From: a virus
Taxonomy: Duplodnaviria; Heunggongvirae; Uroviricota; Caudoviricetes
Strand: one strand, 5' to 3'
Virus record (IMG/VR): IMGVR_UViG_2541047842_000005
DNA: 54,238 nt
Positions within the stretch are counted from its first letter, which is position 1. Every line of letters begins with the position of its first letter. Positions 2,521-44,788 of this stretch are shown piece by piece. The notes beneath the pieces were generated by a model, which was not told the DNA's origin, made no database searches, and saw nothing but the letters and a program-made list of their open reading frames with translations. A program made the position numbers and the translations under genes.

Positions 2521-3942
2521 TTAAAAAGATGCGTTATTCTGGTTGTTTCGTGGTGAGAATCGGCTTGCAGACGGACGTTGTTGCATTGACTGGATGCAAG
2601 CTGACGCCGCGCGGGCCTGGTCGCATGGTAAGATGTTGCCGTTGTCGTCAAACCGCTGGTAAACAGTCCCCGTTTTCCCGTGACGGTTTTTCGAAACAAT
2701 GATCTCCATATATTCGCGGGCAACAGACTGTTCATCATAGTACCCGTCGCGGTAGACCATGATGATCCGGTCTGCGTCCTGTTCAAGATTACCGGAATCA
2801 CGCAGATCAGAATTGTTCGGGCGCTTGTTCGGTCGTTCCTCAACGCGGCGGGATAATTGCGCCAGTGCCAACACTGGTACGCGCAATTCTTTCGCCATCA
2901 TCTTCAACGACCATGACAATTGCCCTACAGCGAGATCGTGACGTTCGGCCTTAGCCAGCTTCATCAACCCGATGTAGTCAATCATTACCATACCGAGGTT
3001 GGGATGATCCTGTTTCATCCGTTCCGTTGTGGCGCGTATTTCCTCAACCGTTAATTGAGACGCGTCAACAATCCAAACGTCAAGATTAGCAAGTGCGCTC
3101 ATACCCTGACCAACATGCGCCAACCCCTCATCATCAAGTTTTACAGGATTACGCAGGCAGTCGGTTGATAAATTACCAGCGCCAGCTATAGCGCGTTCAG
3201 TCATCTGATCGAGTGACATTTCAAGCGTGAAGAACAAAACGCCAACCCGCTGATCTTTACTGCCAGGGTAAGGGTGCTCAGCAGCAGCGCGGGCAATCGC
3301 CAGCGCCAACGCAGATTTACCAGACCCAGGGCGTCCGGCGAGAAGTACCAAATCAGTAGCGTTAATACCGCCTAACATTTCGTCGAGCGGTTCTATCCCT
3401 GTTTTGATGTTGTCAGAATTGACACCGCATTCCATGCGCTTGCTTAAAACCTCTGTGTATTCCTGTACCGCATCGCGCAACAGAACAGGAATGATCTTGT
3501 CTTTCGTTACCTTTAATTTTGAATACCGGGAATCAAAATCTTTCATCGTCTCTTTGACGACTTCAAGCGTCCCCGTTTCCAGCTTGTAGCGCATATCGTC
3601 GATGAGTTCTAACATCTGCCGCCGCTGGTGCTCTTCACGTAGTAGCTGCGCATAGCCTTTCAGGTTTGCGGCAGAAGGACACGAACGCGCCGTTTGCATT
3701 AGCGGTACAAAGTTTTCATTGCCAATCTCATCGCCAACCAATAACGCGTCGATAAGATTCCTGTTTCTGGCTTGCGCCCGGATAACTTCAAACGCACGTT
3801 TGTAAAGCGGGATCGTGAACACTTCAGGATCCAGAGTGGCGAGAACATCTTGCGCGTTAGGAGTGAGGCCGCCTAACAGCAGCCCGCCGATAACTGACGC
3901 TTCACGTTCCTGCCGTAGTGAGTTTATTTGCTCAGTTACCAT
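2521..3942 (-). CDS. replicative DNA helicase, DnaB family
   Basis: 473 aa; Walker A LAGRPGSGKSALA, then DnaB-type motifs (FTLEMS, MVMIDYIGLM, ALAQLSRRVEERPNKRPNNSDLRDSGNLEQDAD). Confidence 0.9.
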   Translation of the reverse strand: MVTEQINSLRQEREASVIGGLLLGGLTPNAQDVLATLDPEVFTIPLYKRAFEVIRAQARNRNLIDALLVGDEIGNENFVPLMQTARSCPSAANLKGYAQLLREEHQRRQMLELIDDMRYKLETGTLEVVKETMKDFDSRYSKLKVTKDKIIPVLLRDAVQEYTEVLSKRMECGVNSDNIKTGIEPLDEMLGGINATDLVLLAGRPGSGKSALALAIARAAAEHPYPGSKDQRVGVLFFTLEMSLDQMTERAIAGAGNLSTDCLRNPVKLDDEGLAHVGQGMSALANLDVWIVDASQLTVEEIRATTERMKQDHPNLGMVMIDYIGLMKLAKAERHDLAVGQLSWSLKMMAKELRVPVLALAQLSRRVEERPNKRPNNSDLRDSGNLEQDADRIIMVYRDGYYDEQSVAREYMEIIVSKNRHGKTGTVYQRFDDNGNILPCDQARAASACIQSMQQRPSASRFSPRNNQNNASF

Positions 3943-3960
3943 TATGTTATTGCCTCCGGT

Positions 3961-5079
3961 TTACAAAATGGAATATTCAGGGTAATAAACAAAACGCCCG
4001 ATTTCCCCATGATCCGGGCTGTAAATAATCACCGCTGCCATCCGCCGCGACCGCCATCCGCCATTTGTTGAGTAAGCGTCTTTACCCGCTAACGTGCCGT
4101 GATACTCAACAACGCCTAACGATGATTCAATCAGCCGTTGATGATGCCAGTGCCCGCAATGAGCGTAAACCGCCGCAGACTTGCCAAAGTCTTCTCGCCA
4201 GTCAGAGACGCAGGCAGACAACAAATTTTCAGGTTTTTTGATAGTATGACCGTGATGATATGCAAGGAATGTTTTGCCGTACTGTGTGTGGTGGACGATG
4301 GCAGGTGACACATCAACAGTAACGCGCGGTTCGTCTTCGTAAAAAGCCGCCAGCGCCGCACGTAGCCAGATCATTCCTGACTGGTCGTGATTACCTGATA
4401 ACACCTGAATTTCTACATCCTTATGATTCAACAACATCTTACCTACAGCACGCCGGACCGACCGGATCGCCACATAAACAAGTTTTGCGTAGCGTGAATC
4501 GCAATCTAAGACGTGATTACTTGATGGCGTCACTGGTAATAGCCCGTCCGTGTGAAGCACATCACCGCCGAGAAGCAATACAGCTTTTTCAGACGTTGGT
4601 GCAGCGCCTACAGCGTAGTCAAAGAAGTCATTTAACACGCGTTCAGCGATCCCGGTGTCGTAGCTCTCACCGCATTCAGCTTTATGAGCAAGCGCCCCGA
4701 TATGCAGATCGAATACCGGATAAAGGGCCAGGCTTTTTTGGAAATCAATCTCAGGCACTGGCACAGCCTCCGCGCGTGGTATCTCTTCCGTGAAAGCGTC
4801 ACAAGCCGATTGCATTAGCATTTCCATTTCATCGCGGTCACGGGCTGTTTTAATCCAGCGCATAATCACATTGCCATCCTTATCGACGAGCAATGACTCA
4901 CCATTGACGCCAAAACCCGGCGCGCGACGCGTGGATATTAAACCGCGTTTCGCCAGCCGTGCGCCCAGTCGTTCAACGTTGCGTTTTGCCATTCCATATT
5001 CTTCGGCTATTTGCTTGTAAGTTTTCCCATTGTTGTATTCAGCGATTAATTGCTCGTCGCTGATCTTTCTTTGCGACAT
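3961..5079 (-). CDS. HTH domain fused to calcineurin-like metallophosphoesterase
   Basis: 372 aa; N-terminal HTH (YKQIAEEYGMAKRNVERLGARLAKRGLI); phosphoesterase signature DLHIG...GGDVLHTDG...GNHD; sits immediately upstream of the helicase gene. Confidence 0.65.
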   Translation of the reverse strand: MSQRKISDEQLIAEYNNGKTYKQIAEEYGMAKRNVERLGARLAKRGLISTRRAPGFGVNGESLLVDKDGNVIMRWIKTARDRDEMEMLMQSACDAFTEEIPRAEAVPVPEIDFQKSLALYPVFDLHIGALAHKAECGESYDTGIAERVLNDFFDYAVGAAPTSEKAVLLLGGDVLHTDGLLPVTPSSNHVLDCDSRYAKLVYVAIRSVRRAVGKMLLNHKDVEIQVLSGNHDQSGMIWLRAALAAFYEDEPRVTVDVSPAIVHHTQYGKTFLAYHHGHTIKKPENLLSACVSDWREDFGKSAAVYAHCGHWHHQRLIESSLGVVEYHGTLAGKDAYSTNGGWRSRRMAAVIIYSPDHGEIGRFVYYPEYSIL

Positions 5080-5255
5080 AATGTTATTTCCTCCGGTTCA
5101 CTGAATGAGTATTTATTCATAAAAAACTAATTTTTATTAACATGGGTTTCACGGTGGCAAAAAATGCCAGCAGGGTTAATCAACAACTTATGCAAATTGA
5201 AATAACTACTTAATGAATAACTAATCGTACACATTGTGGTTTACATTTTGTATAT

Positions 5256-6179
5256 TCATTGGCAGCAAACAAGCCCTTTATATGCTTCTTCTACCATGTC
5301 GAATACTTCCGGCCTGTAATAGAAAAACTCATTACTGCCATCAAATTTTACAGGAAAGTTAATTTTATAATTGCTGAAATATTTATGCATCATGCTTTCT
5401 AATTCATGGATATTTTCGGTTGGACCTTCTAACGTTTTCACGACACATAAATCAGGGATTCTAACGCCTGATTTATGTGCGCTTTTTAATACCCGATTTC
5501 TTCGCTTGTTCTCATTAACGCTTACGCCGATTTTCATTTGTGTAGGCACTTCAGGATCATCAACCATGATGTAAAGTTTGCCGAAATTGTGTGACAAAAA
5601 ACCGTGTTTCGCACATTTCGGGCAGCCTTGCCCGCTTTTAATAGCATAAGGTCTAGGCGACCACTTATGATCACAAACCTTGCATCGACATAATACTTTT
5701 GTCCTATCGTTTATTATTTCTCCCAATACTTCAATATCATGATTTACCTTAGTGATAGCGGATAAATGTTCTTCGTGTGATAATGTTCGTCTTTGTGCGA
5801 TTTTTAAACCTTTACATTTCGGGCAGCCGCGCCCGTTTTTTAGGTTGTTAGGTTTAGCCGACCATTCGTGATTACAAACTTTGCAGCGGCATAATGCTTT
5901 TGTATCGCCGTTTATTATTTCGCCAATCACTTCGACATCAGAATTAACCTTCTCGATAGCGGCAACCTGTTCTTCGTGTGATAATTTCATCTTTCCGGCG
6001 CATTTCGGGCAGCCGTAACCGCTTTTAAGATTGTAAGGTCTAGCCGACCATTCGTGACTGCAAACCTTGCAGCGGCAGGATACTTTTGTCCTGTTATTGA
6101 CAATTTCCCCCAGCACTTCGACATCATGATTAACCTTAGCGATAGCCGCAACCTGTTCATCATGTGTTAACTTGCGCAT
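5256..6179 (-). CDS. triple zinc-ribbon repeat protein with C-terminal T5orf172/GIY-YIG-like domain
   Basis: 307 aa; three tandem ~56-aa repeats HxEQVAAIxKVNxDVEVxGEIxNxxTKxxCRCKVCxHEWSAxPxNLKxGxGCPKC; C-terminus GKLYIMVDD..KIGVSVNENKRRNR..H..EFFYY fits the T5orf172 pattern; strong SD AAGGAG. Confidence 0.55.
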   Translation of the reverse strand: MRKLTHDEQVAAIAKVNHDVEVLGEIVNNRTKVSCRCKVCSHEWSARPYNLKSGYGCPKCAGKMKLSHEEQVAAIEKVNSDVEVIGEIINGDTKALCRCKVCNHEWSAKPNNLKNGRGCPKCKGLKIAQRRTLSHEEHLSAITKVNHDIEVLGEIINDRTKVLCRCKVCDHKWSPRPYAIKSGQGCPKCAKHGFLSHNFGKLYIMVDDPEVPTQMKIGVSVNENKRRNRVLKSAHKSGVRIPDLCVVKTLEGPTENIHELESMMHKYFSNYKINFPVKFDGSNEFFYYRPEVFDMVEEAYKGLVCCQ

Positions 6180-6555: not shown

Positions 6556-7602
6556 TCAAAGAGCGCCAGCGCGCGTATCACGTAGCGTTTTTGGTTTAAG
6601 CAGGAAATCAAGTGTCGCAGTGAAGCCATTGCCGAAGTAAAAATCTGAAGCCGTGTTTTTGAACGTTTCGAAGTAGGCGACAAAGCCGTTAATGCTTTTG
6701 TCTTTCAGGTAGTCAGTGAACGCATAGATCTTGCGTTCAAGATCCCGATCCAGTTCGGCAGGTGGTAACAGGCCGTCAAACGTGCTGTTAAATGCTTCCA
6801 CCACGTCGGCAGCGCTTACAGTAGCTGATAGCTTGCGCCATTGCTCAGCGTCAGCCAGATACCCATCGAATTTAGTTACCCGGCAAATGTTGATAGGCTT
6901 AGGTGTTCCACCACGGCTGCGCCATTGCGTCAAAGCCCATTCGATTACTAATGTGATCTCATCCTCCGTGTATGCCTTACGTGTTTTTGTTTCTGTCAGT
7001 AGTTCGATAAATGGCTTAGCATCACGACACTTGCATCCAGCTTTGTCGTTGTAGAAGGCCAAGCAACGCAATGCCGCTTCGTTTACGCCATCCTGATTGA
7101 CCGTTTTTTGTCCATTTTCGCTAATACACGAAGTGTATATATCTTTTTCACTTTCTTCTTCTACTTCTAATTCATGACCCTTTCCTGACCCGGTCATGAC
7201 CCTATCATGACCTTTTGGTGTTGGATTGATTAACTTCTCTAATTTTAATTGCTCCTTCGCTGTGTTTATAGCAGCCCTATAAGCACTCTTAGAAGTCATT
7301 GATTGGTCCAGCCTTTTTAATAACTTTAGGCAAGTTATGTGGCCTTGAGAACATTCGAACAAACCAATTTCGATGAAGTATTTCATCATTTCTTCTATAC
7401 GTTTTTCAGTAGATCCGACGTTTCGCGCAATGATTCTCGCGTCATGTCGTAGGTCAAAATTCAGATTGTGCTGATCTACGTCATAAGTTATTAGTTCGAG
7501 GCAATACCAATAAAGCCCGTACCCTTCCAGGCCATAATCTAACAAAACGTTTTGAAGTTTTTCATCGCGGTTCGCATCGCTGTCATGCTTAAACCACTTC
7601 AT
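6556..7602 (-). CDS. phage replication initiation protein (replisome organiser-like)
   Basis: 348 aa; N-terminus MKWFKHDSDANRDEKLQNVLLDYGLEGYGLYWYCLELI resembles the DUF4373-type N-domain of phage replication initiators; upstream of the helicase. Confidence 0.6.
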   Translation of the reverse strand: MKWFKHDSDANRDEKLQNVLLDYGLEGYGLYWYCLELITYDVDQHNLNFDLRHDARIIARNVGSTEKRIEEMMKYFIEIGLFECSQGHITCLKLLKRLDQSMTSKSAYRAAINTAKEQLKLEKLINPTPKGHDRVMTGSGKGHELEVEEESEKDIYTSCISENGQKTVNQDGVNEAALRCLAFYNDKAGCKCRDAKPFIELLTETKTRKAYTEDEITLVIEWALTQWRSRGGTPKPINICRVTKFDGYLADAEQWRKLSATVSAADVVEAFNSTFDGLLPPAELDRDLERKIYAFTDYLKDKSINGFVAYFETFKNTASDFYFGNGFTATLDFLLKPKTLRDTRAGAL

Positions 7603-7605
7603 AGA

Positions 7606-7863
7606 TCATCCCTCCGGCAACATCACTACATAGACATCACTGAATGCATCAAGACGACAAACAAATCCTTTATCCATTAACGCGGCGAAGGCATCATGTA
7701 CCGTATGAACAGGAAGTTCACACATTGCGGCTACTTCTTTGCGTGATGCATCATGTACCCGTCCTTTGTTATCTGCCTTTTCAGCCAGAGCCATTAAGAC
7801 AAGTTTTTGAATCGGGCTATTAAGTTTTACGTTCCATGCTTTACTAATCATGTTCATACTCAT
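7606..7863 (-). CDS. HTH_36-like DNA-binding protein, first gene of the early operon (Cro-like position)
   Basis: ORF track gives 7606-7941 from a TTG; ATG at 7863 has GGAG 8 nt upstream; NSPIQKLVLMALAEKADNKGRVHDASRKEVAAMCELPVHTVHDAFAALMDKGFV fits an HTH_36-type winged helix. Confidence 0.5.
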   Translation of the reverse strand: MSMNMISKAWNVKLNSPIQKLVLMALAEKADNKGRVHDASRKEVAAMCELPVHTVHDAFAALMDKGFVCRLDAFSDVYVVMLPEG

Positions 7864-8168
7864 CGCATTTTCTCCTATGGTTAGAGTGAACGCGCGGGCG
7901 GGCATCCCATTAGCATTAGATAGCAGTGACTGACCGCTCAACAGATCCCGCCGTTGCGTGATATTTGTTTTTCGCTTCGCAGCGACACCGGATTTTTAAA
8001 GAGCATAAGGTAAGTGCCTTTTTGTGCCTTCAGTTATCTTTTTCCTTGCGTCTTTGCAAGTATGGCCTTACCTTGTCTGCAAGTTTACAAAATGGAATTT
8101 TAAGATCAAGGCTTAAAATACACGTTTTGTGACTTGCATCAAACTTTTTGAGGTTATAGGGTAGCGAC
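7864..8168. promoter_or_regulatory. divergent immunity control region (candidate operators and promoters)
   Basis: Non-coding gap between the divergent cI-like and early-operon genes; repeated half-site TGCAAGT at about 8055-8061 and 8078-8084, and inverted at 8133-8139; also TTTACAAAATGGAAT and TGTGA-N6-TCAAA. Confidence 0.45.
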
Positions 8169-8816
8169 ATGAAAACAAAATGGTATGACTTAGCAAAGCA
8201 GCTCATGCGGGCGCAGGGCATGAGTCAGGATTCACTCGCAGATCTCATGGGGATAACTAAAGGCGGCCTGTCACACTGGCTGAACGGTCGCCGCGAGCCA
8301 AATCTTGAAGATATTGCGCGGATTATGCGGGCGCTTGGTCGTCGGCAGTTCACTGTTACACATGATGGTATGGTCATTGATGATTCTGTTTCTAATACAC
8401 TTCAGGCCGCACCGCCGCGTGATTTAGGTAGTTACCCGGTTATTGACTGGAAGGACACAGTAAACAATATGGATGACACAAGGCGATCAGCATTACCACA
8501 CGTTACGACTAGCGTTATTTGTTCAGATGATAGTTACTGGCTGGTTGCCAAAGGTGAATCAATGAACGCGCCGCAGGGGTTGAGCATCCCGGCGGGGACG
8601 ATGATACTTGTTGACCCGCACGCGCCAGCTATTGACGGCAAACTGGTTATAGCCCAGCTTGAGGAAGGGCAGATACCGACGTTTAAACAGTTGATTATTG
8701 ATGGAGGTCAAAGGCTTTTACGTTCGCTCAATCCGCTGTATCCGCCAATCCCTATGAATCCAGAATCAAAAATTATAGGCGTGGTGGTTGATGCGAAGAT
8801 CGTAAACCTGCCATAA
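8169..8816 (+). CDS. cI: cI-type phage repressor (HTH plus S24 LexA-like peptidase domain)
   Basis: 215 aa; N-terminal HTH (QDSLADLMGITKGGLSHWLNGRREP); C-terminal S24 fold with GESM serine and a downstream FKQL lysine. Confidence 0.85.
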   Translation: MKTKWYDLAKQLMRAQGMSQDSLADLMGITKGGLSHWLNGRREPNLEDIARIMRALGRRQFTVTHDGMVIDDSVSNTLQAAPPRDLGSYPVIDWKDTVNNMDDTRRSALPHVTTSVICSDDSYWLVAKGESMNAPQGLSIPAGTMILVDPHAPAIDGKLVIAQLEEGQIPTFKQLIIDGGQRLLRSLNPLYPPIPMNPESKIIGVVVDAKIVNLP

Positions 8817-8821
8817 ACATT

Positions 8822-8846
8822 AGCCGCCGGATGGCGGCTTTTCTTT
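8822..8846 (+). terminator. rho-independent terminator after the repressor gene
   Basis: GCCGCC-GGAT-GGCGGC stem-loop followed by TTTTCTTT. Confidence 0.5.
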
Positions 8847-8939
8847 GCCTGGAAAACGCCAAAACGTAAACAGAAAACGTTATTTATTGTTTAAATATCA
8901 ATAGCATATAAAATATTTTAAAAAAGTATACAAAATGGA

Positions 8940-8968
8940 TTGACTCGATGTTTTACGGGGCGTATATT
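8940..8968 (+). promoter_or_regulatory. sigma70-like promoter (pL analogue)
   Basis: TTGACT, 17-nt spacer, TATATT; a TATACAAAATGG motif lies directly upstream. Confidence 0.4.
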
Positions 8969-9222
8969 GCGAGTCAAAGGAAGGTCGCAGGTAACAAAAG
9001 CAACTTCCTGGCACTTTAAAAATCAGGCTTAACACCTTGTCAACCGTGGAGTAACTCCCCGATGGGGGACCGAAAGCGGCACTGATAACAAGGCGCATGG
9101 GGTGTTTAAAGCGTTACATCCCCCACGAAACCGCACGCAAGGCGACGAGTCAGCTTGCTTGGAGTGAGCAAGGTCACGCCGGGAACGGCGATGATTGCGG
9201 GATTAGTTGAAAGATGTTAAGC

Positions 9223-9260
9223 CGCTCATTAACAATCTGGTCAGCCGCTGGAAGTGCGGC
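9223..9260 (+). promoter_or_regulatory. nut-like site (boxA-like CGCTCATTAACAA plus boxB-like hairpin)
   Basis: CGCTCATTAACAA resembles the boxA consensus; 8 nt later GCCGC-TGGAAGT-GCGGC hairpin; located in the leader upstream of the N-like gene. Confidence 0.35.
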
Positions 9261-9316
9261 AATTAACGAAGATGATTTTTTATTAAGTATCATCAAGGAT
9301 ATACGGAGATCAGATT

Positions 9317-9607
9317 ATGAGCGTTACAATCATGTATGGCAAATGTGACAGTAAACTGAATGCCAGGGAACGCAGAAAAATAAAAAGAGAAAACGAAAGA
9401 AAATCATCACCTGCAATCAATAAAACAGACAATGTGGATAAAGCTATTCGATTTGCAAACGAGGAAAGATGCAAACCAAATAGCATTAAAGAACGTCGCA
9501 AAGGATCAGTAAAATGGTGTACGGAAAATGAAAGCGGCAGCTACTACCACGCAACGCAACCACGCCATTTAGGGGAAAAACCCCTGGATAAAGTCCGCTA
9601 CCATTAA
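9317..9607 (+). CDS. N-like transcription antiterminator (P22 gp24-like, arginine-rich motif)
   Basis: 96 aa, very basic; N-terminus MSVTIMYGKCDSKLNARERRKIKRENERK parallels the P22 N start (YGK..NAKTRRHERRRK) as I recall it. Confidence 0.55.
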   Translation: MSVTIMYGKCDSKLNARERRKIKRENERKSSPAINKTDNVDKAIRFANEERCKPNSIKERRKGSVKWCTENESGSYYHATQPRHLGEKPLDKVRYH

Positions 9608-9637
9608 TACAAAATGTAAACATCCGGAGGTGACATT

Positions 9638-9760
9638 ATGGTTATTCAGGCGCTTCAATTCAAACTGGCAGTAGCGGAAATGCTTCACGATGCCGAAATG
9701 TGGAGCGCCGCGAATAAAGCCTTATACATAGTGTTAACAGCACGGGAGATTAAATGGTGA
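9638..9760 (+). CDS. small hypothetical protein (40 aa)
   Basis: ATG with strong SD GGAGGTG; stop overlaps the erf start; not in the ORF track. Confidence 0.3.
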   Translation: MVIQALQFKLAVAEMLHDAEMWSAANKALYIVLTAREIKW

Positions 9761-12981: not shown

Positions 12982-13080
12982 CAGCGTGATTGCGATCACA
13001 TAAATATACATTTTGTGTTGTGATCGCGTATCCGTTTTGTAAACCGAAATCAAAAGGTTTACGGCACGGAGGAAAACAAG

Positions 13081-16388: not shown

Positions 16389-16547
16389 AATTTACAAAAT
16401 GGCGCCATTGCGTGATGTGGATCACATAATGGCGCTATTCACCTTGTTCTGGTGTATCCATTTTGTATACTTCAAGCAAACGAAATGCTCTTTAAAAATC
16501 CGGCAGCGCTGAAATGCGTAGAAATCACCTGAAAAGGAGAGAGCATT

Positions 16548-22645: not shown

Positions 22646-22701
22646 ATGTGATCTGTATCACAAGGTTTACGAAATGGCATTGTTTCGGCAGTGCCATTTT
22701 G

Positions 22702-23408
22702 TTGTGCACAGAAAACCCCCAGCTAGGCTGGGGGTTCCGGAAAGCTTTCAGCTTTGAGCCAGTTATTAAAACCCCTTTTGATTTGTTAAAACACCTTGCG
22801 GTCTGGCAACTGCAAGTGTCAAACAAGAAATCAAAAGGGGGTCCCAATGGGGAACGAAAAGAGCTTAGCGCACACCCGATGGAACTGTAAATATCACATA
22901 GTTTTTGCGCCAAAATACCGAAGACAGGTGTTCTACAGAGAGAAGCGTAGAGCAATAGGCAGTATTTTGAGAAAGCTGTGTGAGTGGAAAAGCGTACGGA
23001 TTCTGGAAGCTGAATGCTGTGCAGATCATATCCATATGCTTGTGGAGATCCCGCCTAAAATGAGCGTATCCGGGTTTATGGGATATCTGAAAGGGAAAAG
23101 CAGTCTGATGCTTTACGAGCAGTTTGGTGATTTGAAATTCAAATACAGGAACAGGGAGTTCTGGTGCAGAGGGTACTACGTCGATACAGTGGGTAAGAAC
23201 ACGGCGAAGATACAGGATTACATAAAGCACCAGCTTGAAGAGGATAAAATGGGAGAGCAGTTATCGATTCCCTATCCGGGCAGCCCGTTTACGGGCCGTA
23301 AGTAACGAAGTTGGATGCAAATGTCAGATCGTGTGCGCCTGTTAGGGCGCGGCTGGTAAGAGAGCCTTATAGGCGCATTTGAAAAACCTCCGGCTATGCC
23401 GGAGGATA
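22702..23408 (+). mobile_element. IS200 (IS200/IS605 family) insertion sequence
   Basis: Contains a tnpA colinear with IS200 TnpA; perfect left-end hairpin CCCCCAGC-TAG-GCTGGGGG at 22716-22734, RBS-sequestering inverted repeat at about 22772-22822, right-end hairpin CCTCCGGC-TAT-GCCGGAGG at about 23388-23406; boundaries estimated from the expected ~707 bp length, +/-10 bp. Confidence 0.7.
22847..23305 (+). CDS. tnpA: IS200 transposase TnpA (HUH Y1 transposase)
   Basis: 152 aa from MGNEKSLAHTRWNCKYHIVFAPKYRRQVFY; HxH motif ADHIHMLVEIPP and C-terminal catalytic region RNREFWCRGYYVDTVG match IS200 TnpA; the track ORF 22796-23305 includes an upstream extension. Confidence 0.9.
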   Translation: MGNEKSLAHTRWNCKYHIVFAPKYRRQVFYREKRRAIGSILRKLCEWKSVRILEAECCADHIHMLVEIPPKMSVSGFMGYLKGKSSLMLYEQFGDLKFKYRNREFWCRGYYVDTVGKNTAKIQDYIKHQLEEDKMGEQLSIPYPGSPFTGRK

Positions 23409-38965: not shown

Positions 38966-39625
38966 TTAATTCCAGTTGCAAGCGTTTTTCACTTTGTCGA
39001 TGTGGTTATAAAGACCATCAATGTTAAACACTGCTTTCTCAATGTCGCCAGCTTCCGGCACTACTTCAATGATGAATTGTTTTTCGTTAACCAGTTTTTT
39101 AATCATTGGGATGGCTTTTTTGCCGTCCCATAATCCAAGAGCTTTATAATTAGTTGACCGCCACCACTCAGTAGCTACAGCTTTGTGAACGCCGATCCGG
39201 TAGTTAATATAAGTAGTGTCCCCGGCGTCAGTTACATGGTGTGACCATGCTACGAACATTTTTGTTTTATTACCCTGGCAAGCGATTGTTAATACCGGTT
39301 TATTCTTATCCTGTGCCTTCAGTGTCGGGAAAGCATCAAGACTTCCGCTGAATTGTTCTGCTTTCACAAAAAGGAATACGTTTTTTGCGTCCTGCATATC
39401 ATCTTTTCTTTCAACTACAAGCCACTGTTTACCAGCATTTTCTTTTTCTAACTGTGCATCGTATGCGGCTTGTTTTGCTTGTTGTTCTGCAAGCCATTTA
39501 GCATTTTTCTCTGCTAATGCTTGTTGCTCTTGATTGGTCACTATAGGCGCTTTTTCATTATCCTCATTGCAACCAACCAGACCCAATACCGCCGCAATCA
39601 TTGCCACTTTTGCTAACCGTTTCAT
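38966..39625 (-). CDS. lipoprotein (moron, opposite strand within the tail operon)
   Basis: 219 aa; signal peptide with lipobox LVGC (MKRLAKVAMIAAVLGLVGC); SD GGTGGG upstream. Confidence 0.65.
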   Translation of the reverse strand: MKRLAKVAMIAAVLGLVGCNEDNEKAPIVTNQEQQALAEKNAKWLAEQQAKQAAYDAQLEKENAGKQWLVVERKDDMQDAKNVFLFVKAEQFSGSLDAFPTLKAQDKNKPVLTIACQGNKTKMFVAWSHHVTDAGDTTYINYRIGVHKAVATEWWRSTNYKALGLWDGKKAIPMIKKLVNEKQFIIEVVPEAGDIEKAVFNIDGLYNHIDKVKNACNWN

Positions 39626-39672: not shown

Positions 39673-39712
39673 TATACAAAATGGAGTCGTTGAAGTAAAG
39701 CCATTTTGTATA
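39673..39712. repeat. inverted repeat TATACAAAATGG - N16 - CCATTTTGTATA in the divergent intergenic region
   Basis: 12-nt arms, perfect; lies between the start of the minus-strand lipoprotein gene and the tape measure gene. Confidence 0.6.
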
Positions 39713-43062: not shown

Positions 43063-43175
43063 TTTGGGCCTCCTTCGTTGGTACTGCTTTTCTTCTTGCT
43101 TTCTGTATACATCTTGTTGCGAACTATGTGAAGCCATATTGTAAACTAGCTATAATCATTGTACTGAAGATCTCA

Positions 43176-43197
43176 TTTTCGCGTAGAAGCGCGTAAA
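43176..43197 (+). repeat. 22-bp element TTTTCGCGTAGAAGCGCGTAAA (copy 2)
   Basis: Exact copy of 30455-30476; 32 nt upstream of the gpM-like gene start. Confidence 0.6.
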
Positions 43198-43229
43198 GAT
43201 ATATACAAAATGTAACTTATGGGGGTTTT

Positions 43230-43878: not shown

Positions 43879-44127
43879 TCATAACGCCCCCTTCAAATAT
43901 GTCAATCCCTTATCAGTGACGAATGAGTGATTAACCTGGTTTTCATCCGTCATGATGATAAATAACTTTTCCTGTAGGTATTTCGCTTTAGGGTACAGCG
44001 TTAAGCAGACCTGGTACAGTATCCCGCGCTCAATCAGCAAATCAATAAATTCGTGTTCATGATAACCGATGAGGCGGGCGGCCTGTTTCAACGTGTACAC
44101 ATAATCACCGTGATTGCGCCGCCCCAT
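43879..44127 (-). CDS. hypothetical protein (82 aa), possibly HTH
   Basis: YTLKQAARLIGYHEHEFIDLLIERGIL has helix-turn-helix character; moron cluster 2. Confidence 0.4.
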   Translation of the reverse strand: MGRRNHGDYVYTLKQAARLIGYHEHEFIDLLIERGILYQVCLTLYPKAKYLQEKLFIIMTDENQVNHSFVTDKGLTYLKGAL

Positions 44128-44659: not shown

Positions 44660-44788
44660 AACGCACATCCGCGCCATTTTGTTAACCATGCTTCCGTTTG
44701 AGTAAAATATACATATTGTAAAAACCATGATCAATCCATTTTGGTGTGATTTAGCGTGACGCATATCACAAAATGACAAGGTGAGAAA

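Follow-up and report, generated by a model that had tools for sequence, protein, structure and literature searches.

Arrangement of the gap beside the repressor gene

The region between positions 7864 and 8168 of the virus record IMGVR_UViG_2541047842_000005 separates the gene of a CI-type repressor (Rep) from an early operon, and the operators and promoters that may lie in it are the subject of this analysis. The whole stretch of DNA that was analysed (54,238 nucleotides) is referred to as the window. As proposed in the initial annotation, the repressor gene on the plus strand (8169–8816) is divergent from the early operon on the minus strand (7606–7863 and 6556–7602). The bases 7500–9400 match six phages of the mEpimmI group (mEp021, mEp010, mEp013, mEp044, mEp515, and mEp554) at 90–93% DNA identity, with MagusPhagus in the same range. 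The synteny with mEp021 and mEp515, the mEpimmI-type gene order, the repressor, and Gp17 place the window in this group as an mEp021-like temperate prophage of E. coli. Of 5426 complete E. coli genomes, 35 contain the region, in every case in the chromosome, and the IMG/VR contig L005 was identical across the stretch compared (window 7800–8300). In the RefSeq annotation of a prophage 99% identical to the window, the left end carries an integrase gene, and the host gene abgT follows in truncated form just past the right end, which indicates that the window covers the entire prophage.

The mEpimmI group was described by Negrete-Mendez et al. 2025 (PMC11893012), cited here from those parts of the paper that were available. 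According to these parts, Rep021 supplied from a plasmid prevents infection by all six mEpimmI phages, this repressor has no Ala-Gly cleavage site, and the lysogens are not UV-inducible. Gp17 is an N-like antiterminator acting at nutL, nutR1, and nutR2, of which nutL lies upstream of the repressor gene and serves leftward transcription and nutR1 lies upstream of gp17. The same parts do not describe operators, promoters, the absence of cro, or dispersed sites, and a literature search for the operator motif returned unrelated primer matches only. The map of operators and promoters presented below, like the loss of cro and the occurrence of dispersed sites, thus appears to be undescribed for this published phage group in the literature examined.

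Rep has helix-turn-helix (HTH) and peptidase domains (Table 1). Its best solved relative is lambda CI (3bdn, E=1e-19, residues 15–208), and it is 96% identical to Rep021 of mEp021, residues 1–78 being identical; among mEpimmI phages, repressors of the immunity-I type are about 96% similar. The alignment shows KDTVNN where the related repressors P0009 and P0013 carry VSAGEW, and Rep lacks the Ala-Gly cleavage site. The residues aligned with the positive-control residues E34 and D38 of lambda CI are both D (QDSLAD versus QESVAD).

For the comparison of the family, 46 loci (29 distinct sequences) were aligned for this first gap and 43 loci (33 distinct sequences) for the second gap, on the other side of the repressor gene. 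Candidate operators were scored by their matches out of 12 to WWTACR-N3-TGKAWW, and sites with at least 11 matches were regarded as strong. The more distant relatives of the repressor were those of L052 (P0008, 55% identical), L055 (P0013, 50%), and L047 (38%). A scan of genome contigs with the repressor turned up no relatives, and an Rfam search of 7500–9700 gave nothing significant.

The invariant blocks of the first gap are the ribosome binding site (RBS) of the first early gene, a leader of ~110 nt, a boxA/boxB-like element, CTTGCRTCNTTGCAAS (8045–8060), TTACCTTGTCWGCAAGTTTACAnAATGG (8067–8095), TCAAGG (8106–8111), TTTTGTGACTTGCATCAAA (8125–8143), and TTATAGGGTAGCGAYATG. Across the family, operator half-sites and promoter hexamers are invariant while the promoter spacers vary. 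The hexamers of the predicted leftward promoter are invariant or improved (-35 TTGACC in many relatives), the most variable stretch of the gap (8096–8105) falls within its spacer, and L052 has the same geometry (TTGAAC-16-TAAACT). We infer a leftward transcript start near 8075. The predicted operator O1 overlaps this promoter; its left half, TTTACA, is invariant in the 29 sequences and is kept in L052 as TTTACGAATTGG. The second predicted operator, O2, sits 9 bp upstream of the leftward -35 and reads GTCACAAAATGTATT (10/12) in most relatives, with GTCACAAAATGGCGC at its position in L052. The candidate O3 has an L052 counterpart, AAAACAAAGTGGAAT, that scores 11/12; its conservation is inseparable from the coding constraint (MKTKW). 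A tripartite operator of the lambda type, with three dyads 23–24 bp apart between divergent promoters, was not found between the promoters of this gap, which hold only O1 and O2.

Several other readings of the gap were rejected. An alternative leftward promoter (TTGATG-16-TATTTT, 8142..8115) acquires a 14-nt spacer in most relatives, and the 27-nt imperfect palindrome 8078–8104/8112–8138, considered as one large operator, is better described as the two operators O1 and O2 facing in opposite directions, with a TTGCA-type sequence after each of them. About 5–7 of the 12 positions match in TTTTGTGCC (8020–8028), which had been considered as a fourth operator and was left without an assignment.

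The repressor gene is preceded by a predicted PRM-like promoter, the hexamers of which are invariant in the 29 family sequences. The last T of its -10 sits 6 nt before the ATG at 8169, and the distance is the same in L052 (TAGGAT-caagtc-ATG) and L047 (TATAAT-ttttga-ATG). This distance predicts a leaderless repressor mRNA, which probably starts at the A of its ATG from this weak promoter. The lambda cI mRNA made from PRM is leaderless as well. An operator-like sequence, GTAAACAATATGGAT, was also seen inside the repressor gene at 8460–8474 (16.4 bits with a position weight matrix).

The initial annotation expected shared operators in the second gap if the repressor controls both arms, and a TTTACAAAATGGAAT-related copy is indeed present there at 8927–8941. 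Together with a proximal site it brackets the rightward early promoter, the centres of the two predicted operators being 25 bp apart (24 bp in lambda). In the 33 family sequences AAAAAGTATACAAAATG and GCGTATATT are invariant and the spacer of this strong predicted promoter varies, and L052 has the same layout (TATACAAAATGGTA-TTGCAT-...-TATAGT, sites 25 bp apart). As in lambdoid phages, a second set of predicted operators thus lies at the promoter of the N-like operon, across the repressor gene. A possible third site on this side is weakly supported; its CCAAAACGTAAAC is invariant in the family. Downstream of the nutR1-like element lies gp17 (9317–9607), which encodes a 96-aa protein 93% identical to mEp021 Gp17 and assigned to the PHROG "anti-termination protein N-like". 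A segment of ~200 bp in the second gap (9027–9224), which holds the 37-aa open reading frame (ORF) "gp16" (9097–9210), is missing from about ten family members. It is flanked by the boxA-like GCACTTTAAAAATC (9011) and by CGCTCATTAACAATC (9223), and in the relatives without it the junction reads the canonical TGCTCTTTAACAATC.

Table 1. Genes, promoters, and predicted control sites of the phage (window coordinates; fractions at operators are matches out of 12)
Feature	Position	Strand	Description
Second exact copy of TTTACAAAATGGAAT	3960..3974	+	between the stop of a 372-aa gene (3961-5079, -) and the RBS of a DnaB-like helicase gene (2521-3942, -)
First early-left gene (gp14-like), 85 aa	7606..7863	-	winged-helix; homologous to the N-terminal domain of replication initiators
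Conserved structured leader	7864..7971	-	between nutL and the gp14 RBS AGGAG (7876..7872)
nutL (predicted)	7972..8004	-	boxA GCTCTTTAAAAATCC (8004..7990); boxB hairpin TCGCT-GCGA-AGCGA (7985..7972)
Palindrome CTTGCGTCTTTGCAAG (CTTGCR-N4-TGCAAS)	8045..8060		holds the first TGCAAGT copy; ~+16 to +31 of the predicted leftward transcript
Leftward early promoter (predicted)	8082..8109	-	-35 TTGATC (8109..8104); 16-nt spacer; -10 TAAACT (8087..8082)
O1 (predicted operator)	8084-8098	+	TTTACA AAA TGGAAT, 12/12; overlaps leftward -10 and spacer
O2 (predicted operator)	8119-8133	-	GTCACA AAA CGTGTA, 9/12; abuts PRM-like -35, centre ~-43
PRM-like promoter (predicted)	8134..8162	+	-35 TTGCAT (8134-8139); 17-nt spacer; -10 TAGGGT (8157-8162)
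CI-type repressor (Rep), 215 aa	8169..8816	+	Pfam HTH_3 E=5e-13; Peptidase_S24 E=4e-19
O3 (candidate operator)	8172-8186	+	AAAACA AAA TGGTAT, 10/12; codons 2-6 of the repressor gene
Intrinsic terminator after the repressor gene	8822..8839	+	also annotated as terminator in mEp021 and mEp515
Possible third rightward-side site	8856..8870	-	TTTACG TTT TGGCGT, 10/12
Distal rightward operator (predicted)	8927-8941	+	TATACA AAA TGGATT, 12/12; TATACAAAATGGATT, a 15-mer match; overlaps first 2 nt of -35
Rightward early promoter (predicted)	8940-8968	+	-35 TTGACT (8940-8945); 17 nt; -10 TATATT (8963-8968); promoter score 10/12
Proximal rightward operator (predicted)	8952-8966	+	TTTACG GGG CGTATA, 11/12; supplies TATA of -10
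nutR1-like element	9223..9260	+	boxA CGCTCATTAACAATC (9223-9237); hairpin GCCGC-TGGAAGT-GCGGC (9244-9260); conserved in the family
Palindromic site	9606..9620		AATACA AAA TGTAAA, 12/12; after the gp17 stop, before the next gene
Operator-like pair	13005-13019, 13029-13043		both 11/12, 24 bp apart; intergenic, rightward early operon
Inverted operator-like pair	39673-39687, 39698-39712	+, -	both 11/12, 25 bp apart
Two-site cassette at the promoter of the antirepressor-like operon	44708..44747	-	TATACA TAT TGTAAA (44708-44722, 12/12); 44733-44747 (9/12)

Assignment of the operator motif

The sequence TTTACAAAATGGAAT occurs exactly at both 8084–8098 and 3960–3974, as had been noted initially. In the window it has 17 matches at no more than 3 mismatches versus 4.0 expected, and none of 100 shuffles reached 17. 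The dispersed 15-mer matches define the motif gTWTACAAAATGGm, and the fully palindromic copies TATACA-AAA-TGTAAA at 5240, 9606, and 43202 indicate a 15-bp dyad, WWTACR-N3-TGKAWW. There are 14 sites scoring 12/12 in the window (0–3 in shuffles). The intergenic 10.7% of the genome holds 16 of the 36 sites with at least 11 matches (P=3e-7), and 12 pairs of sites are spaced by 24–26 bp compared with 1–4 in shuffles.

The link to the repressor comes from its relatives. In L055, a lambdoid Citrobacter prophage, the 98-bp gap between the repressor gene and cro reads AATACA TAA CGTACT ... AATACA AAA TGGAAC ... AATACG GAT TGTAAT, and the gap on the other side of the repressor gene contains AATACA AAA CGGATT and AATACG TTA TGTATT, 25 bp apart. 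These two flanking gaps, in which the sites have a classical multi-site arrangement, hold six of the nine L055 sites with at least 11 matches in 20.7 kb. L047 has three TATACA sites in a repressor–cro gap of 112 bp, the last of which (TATACA TAA CGTATA) overlaps a TATAAT ending 6 nt before the ATG. The L052 repressor, in which HTH helices 2 and 3 are identical to those of Rep, belongs to a phage with the mEp021 gene order; here, GTTTACGAATTGG, GTCACAAAATGG, and AAAACAAAGTGG stand at the positions of O1, O2, and O3. As repeated copies filling the short repressor–cro gaps of three independent relatives are the signature of CI/Cro operators, we assign the motif to the repressor and infer that WWTACR-N3-TGKAWW is its operator. 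We consider it likely that this gap serves as the principal control region of a coliphage of the mEpimmI group, that is, the counterpart of the lambda cI–OR–cro region lacking cro, and that the motif is the operator of the repressor. The evidence consists of sequence, conservation, homology, and statistics; from these the binding events, the transcription starts, and the regulatory signs are all predicted.

Several observations weigh against this assignment. In most sites the right half retains no more than TG(G/T), which makes the conserved unit effectively an asymmetric 12-mer. L055 and L047 share the half-site though their recognition helices are not the same (K to Q, S to G), that is, proteins and sites do not covary, and a different conserved factor might in principle act at the motif. 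In this window O2 is weak (9/12), the O1–O2 spacing of 35 bp is unusual for cooperative binding of a CI-type protein, and the leftward promoter reaches only 8/12, below the threshold of the consensus scan. Moreover, a CRP-like palindrome overlaps O2 and the PRM-like -35 and offers an alternative reading of that invariant block.

The initial annotation had regarded TGCAAGT as the half-site of the operators. It is true that three copies of it, two direct and one inverted, are found within 84 bp of the gap (8055–8061 and 8078–8084 on the plus strand, 8132–8138 on the minus strand), that two of them form the outer ends of the 27-nt imperfect inverted repeat, and that the copy at 8078 is conserved in L052. 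However, the count in the window is that expected by chance (10 versus 8.6), and 12% of the shuffled versions of the 305-bp gap contain a 7-mer with three or more occurrences when both strands are counted. Each copy varies in the immunity group (TGCAACT, AGCAAGT, ACTTGTA), TGCAAGT is not found in the operator regions of L055 and L047, the second gap has no good copy (TGCGAGT at 8968 is the closest), and the spacings of 23 and 54 bp fit no dimer. It is thus extremely improbable that the repressor recognises TGCAAGT. The copy at 8078–8084 is better explained as the predicted leftward -10-to-start region plus the first T of O1, and that at 8132–8138 as the two final bases of O2 joined to the TTGCA of the -35 in the PRM-like promoter. 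The third copy is part of an unrelated palindrome (8045–8060).

The dispersed WWTACAAAATGG motif might also be a promoter element (a UP-like A-tract or a -10 mimic) or a site of CRP, IHF, or a second phage regulator, with the true operators lying elsewhere. The motif is A-rich and is located at ~-42 of the rightward promoter, the position of a proximal UP subsite; its reverse complement supplies TATAnn -10 hexamers; and, besides the missing covariation of protein and site, it occurs at promoters of accessory genes, which are often expressed in lysogens, with CRP-like palindromes beside several clusters of sites. A fixed promoter element does not agree with the orientation of the motif relative to the promoters, which differs between the two gaps, and palindromic versions (TATACA-AAA-TGTAAA) exist, as expected for a dimer. 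Sites fill the short repressor–cro gaps of L047, L055, and L052 several times, and in L055 they occur on the two sides of the repressor gene and on no other promoter. We regard such an origin of the motif as unlikely, and the assignment to the repressor is followed below.

The CRP-consensus-like palindrome YGTGAT-N4-ATCACA is itself recurrent (8128–8143, 12985–13000, 16411–16426, 22647–22662, 44755–44770, and 52104–52119), with a perfect TGTGATCTGTATCACA at 22647. It has 7 matches versus 2.7 expected, six of the seven lying beside operator sites, within a few tens of bp. These palindromes could be host CRP sites or back-to-back operator halves of the ATCACA type.

Absence of cro and the leader of the early-left operon

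The relatives L052, L055, and L047 each encode a Cro-like protein of the HTH_3 family (72–75 aa), divergent from the repressor gene. The absence of a canonical Cro from this immunity region, claimed in the initial annotation, was confirmed: a tblastn search of the gap and the whole window with the Cro proteins of L052, L055, lambda, 434, and P22 matched only the HTH of the repressor itself. The homology between L052 and the window is limited to the operator core (window 8069–8227) and nutL (window 7965–8004). Between these pieces L052 has an RBS and a 75-aa HTH_3 cro gene, where the window has 64 bp. Compared with the L052 sister lineage, the mEpimmI group lacks cro, and the predicted nutL follows almost directly after the predicted promoter. 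The palindrome 8045–8060 lies within the 64-bp segment that stands in place of the L052 cro; its arms are conserved in the family, and it forms a hairpin of 4–5 bp in the leader fold.

The sole ORF of the gap (8030–8170, minus strand), which had been pointed out initially, is not conserved and was rejected as a gene. It ranges from 10 to 85 aa in the family, its ATG is replaced by ATA in five variants, and the inferred leftward promoter lies downstream of its start.

The first early gene, gp14-like, had been described as encoding an HTH_36-like protein rather than a Cro homologue. The second half of this statement holds and the first was not confirmed: the 85-aa protein has no Pfam match at E<=0.01, and in PHROGs it matches phrog_4617, "replication initiation protein" (E=3.9e-23, profile positions 1–89 of 223), as well as several O-like families. 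No similarity was found between it and the 291-aa replication protein of L052. The gp14 allele of mEp021 is only 34% identical, though the gap and the repressor gene are ~92% identical in DNA, and the homology breakpoints fall at or inside the gp14-like gene, among other places at its start codon. This divergence next to invariant operators, together with the breakpoints, indicates that the gene belongs to the replication module.

The same data bear on the idea that the gp14-like protein is a functional analogue of Cro binding the same operators. Such a role would suit the first leftward gene, encoding a small predicted DNA-binding protein that RefSeq labels MarR-family, and lambda Cro, for its part, does not have the classical all-alpha HTH_3 form. 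Nevertheless, the relation to replication initiators, whose N-terminal domain it matches at E=4e-23, the low identity of the alleles between phages with invariant operators and repressors that are 96% identical, and the breakpoints that split gp14 from the immunity module and leave it with the replication gene make this very unlikely.

The predicted nutL lies in a stretch 77.5% identical to L052 9599–9637, which has GCTCTTTAACAA followed by a hairpin with a GAAA loop, and the nutL hairpin with its GNRA loop is preserved in the consensus fold of the family. The leader between nutL and the gp14 RBS is nearly invariant in the 29 distinct sequences. Its single-sequence fold is unexceptional (z=-1.1); the consensus fold contains a long hairpin of the minus-strand RNA (7897–7954, GGCGGGAUC ... 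GGAUGCCCGCC) with one compensatory change, G:C to U:A, in one relative (L044). An N-terminal extension of gp14 from the TTG at 7941 was rejected: homology runs across different gp14 alleles and RBSs, which makes this stretch leader and not coding sequence. A long stem of the 5' leader (8007–8018 with 8064–8074) was likewise discarded, no compensatory changes being seen for it in the family alignment. On the plus strand, 8007–8026 reads AAGG(C)-loop-(G)CCTT followed by TTTTTGTGC and resembles a small terminator-like hairpin facing the repressor gene. The ends of its stem are invariant; the loop and the inner stem vary (AAGGC-GTCG-GCCTT, AAGGC-TTTG-GCCTT).

Dispersed sites and a possible switch without Cro

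The operator motif was found at about ten further places in the phage genome, and mEp021, mEp515, other family members, and L052 have kept several of them. Besides the sites of Table 1 and 5240, the predicted places of the regulon include 16391–16469, 22666–22706, 43106–43216, and 52080. The second exact copy of TTTACAAAATGGAAT, upstream of the DnaB-like helicase gene, has an equivalent upstream of dnaB in L052 (6707–6721). The palindromic site after gp17 is conserved in mEp021, mEp515, L043, and L026 and also in L052 (11280–11294), and the pair 13005/13029 corresponds to 16023/16048 of L052. The inverted pair 39673/39698 occupies the divergent region between accessory genes on the minus strand (38966–39625) and the tape-measure gene. 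Five loci follow one design, in which the distal site overlaps the -35 and, 17 nt further on, the proximal site gives the TATA of the -10: the rightward early promoter, 13029 (minus strand), 39673/39698 (in both directions), 43131 (minus strand), and 44708/44733. Within the early operons, intergenic palindromic sites are also present singly (5240, 9606, and the second TTTACAAAATGGAAT copy at 3960–3974). The sequence TACACG AAG TGTATA was also noticed inside the replication gene (7125–7139), where it is kept in four relatives despite divergent alleles.

The cassette 44708–44747 reads on the minus strand ...AAAATGGA-TTGATC-17 nt-TATATT, and the window, mEp044, MagusPhagus, and mEp021 do not differ in its operator and promoter blocks. 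The operon under it ends in a KilAC antirepressor-like gene (43879–44127), annotated as antirepressor in RefSeq and in mEp021; a KilAC-like gene is among the candidate core genes of mEpimmI in the available parts of PMC11893012. No LexA box was seen in the promoter region of this operon by eye, no scan having been run. In the early-left operon of L052, two direct copies of GTATACAAAATGG (8554–8568 and 8593–8607) stand just upstream of an antirepressor gene with pRha/ANT domains, a pair that parallels the predicted operator cassette of the window at the antirepressor-like operon. Since the two-site cassette and the single sites recur in intergenic regions, the repressor probably controls a dispersed regulon. 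In L055 the sites are not spread in this way, which makes the dispersal a property of the mEp021-type backbone.

From this map, the following course of regulation can be proposed. A dimer of Rep would bind the half-conserved 15-bp dyads WWTACR-N3-TGKAWW. In the lysogen, Rep at O1 and at the two rightward sites would block both early promoters, of which the leftward one would drive a leader of ~210 nt with nutL and then the replication genes. Lambda CI at OR2 activates PRM from ~-43; by analogy, Rep at O2 (~-43) probably stimulates its own weak leaderless PRM-like promoter. Occupation of O3, just inside the repressor gene, could give negative autoregulation, and the secondary sites may keep the internal and accessory promoters, including that of the antirepressor-like operon, quiet. 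With neither Cro nor an Ala-Gly site, lytic commitment could use neither the Cro loop of lambda nor RecA cleavage. We therefore propose, tentatively and as a possibility more doubtful than probable, a Cro-less version of the lambda-style N/Q/CI programme, in which a non-cleavable repressor holds a regulon of about ten promoters and a Rep-repressed antirepressor would inactivate Rep as soon as repression slips, a double-negative loop at the protein level that would replace the Cro/CI loop.

The region shares with lambda a CI-type repressor with HTH and S24 domains, predicted back-to-back promoters with putative repressor sites, a predicted N-type boxA/boxB, a site at ~-43 of a weak repressor promoter, acidic positive-control residues, a probably leaderless repressor mRNA, and a second set of sites, ~25 bp apart, at the promoter of the N-like operon. 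In contrast to lambda, cro is absent and the predicted nutL directly follows the promoter, whereas in lambda it comes after cro. Instead of three 17-bp sites at 23–24 bp, the region has two clear predicted sites spaced by 35 bp and one in the coding region, and the 15-bp operator is of another sequence, with extra sites throughout the genome. The repressor lacks the Ala-Gly site, and the lysogens are not UV-inducible according to the available parts of PMC11893012. The non-lambda architecture suggested in the initial annotation is thus half right: it holds for the parts (the missing cro, the predicted nutL inside the gap, the two sites 35 bp apart, and the dispersed sites), whereas the predicted logic is lambda-like, with overlapping sites at divergent promoters, further operators at the promoter of the N operon, and nut sites.

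The P1 C1 repressor and the gp71 "stoperator" system of mycobacteriophage L5 are cases where one prophage repressor acts at many largely asymmetric dispersed sites, in P1 including antirepressor control. The present phage resembles them in the many sites, here predicted from sequence, at secondary promoters and between genes. It differs in the unrelated repressor family and in that many of its sites form 25-bp pairs embedding a promoter; L5 stoperators have a fixed orientation relative to transcription, which the sites described here do not. Gifsy-type prophages, on which Lemire et al. are said to have worked in 2011, reportedly have non-cleavable repressors and antirepressor genes controlled by LexA. 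The likeness to them consists in a CI-like repressor not cleaved after DNA damage and an antirepressor-like gene, but the promoter of the antirepressor operon carries here putative operators of the phage's own repressor, whereas the Gifsy antirepressors are under LexA.

In E. coli of the human gut, phages of the mEpimmI group are reported to match lambdoid phages in frequency. The repressor and the antiterminator of the group had already been studied, and their operators, promoters, and switch logic appear not to have been defined previously. The analysis supplies coordinates for the predicted operators and promoters and predicts repressor control of many promoters outside the immunity region, that of the antirepressor-like operon among them. 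If true, the phage would be a natural example of a bistable CI-type switch without Cro, with a bearing on the evolution of such switches and on the reason for which these lysogens are not UV-inducible.

Two further genes of the window may be mentioned. The early-left operon encodes a 307-aa protein (5256–6179, minus strand) with three treble-clef zinc-ribbon repeats of the DUF4379/CapR type and a C-terminal T5orf172/MUG113 (GIY-YIG-like) domain, and this protein is variable among the mEp phages. In the head region (window ~30040–31410), a gene is labelled "anti-CBASS protein Acb1 family" in the RefSeq annotation of the 99% identical prophage.

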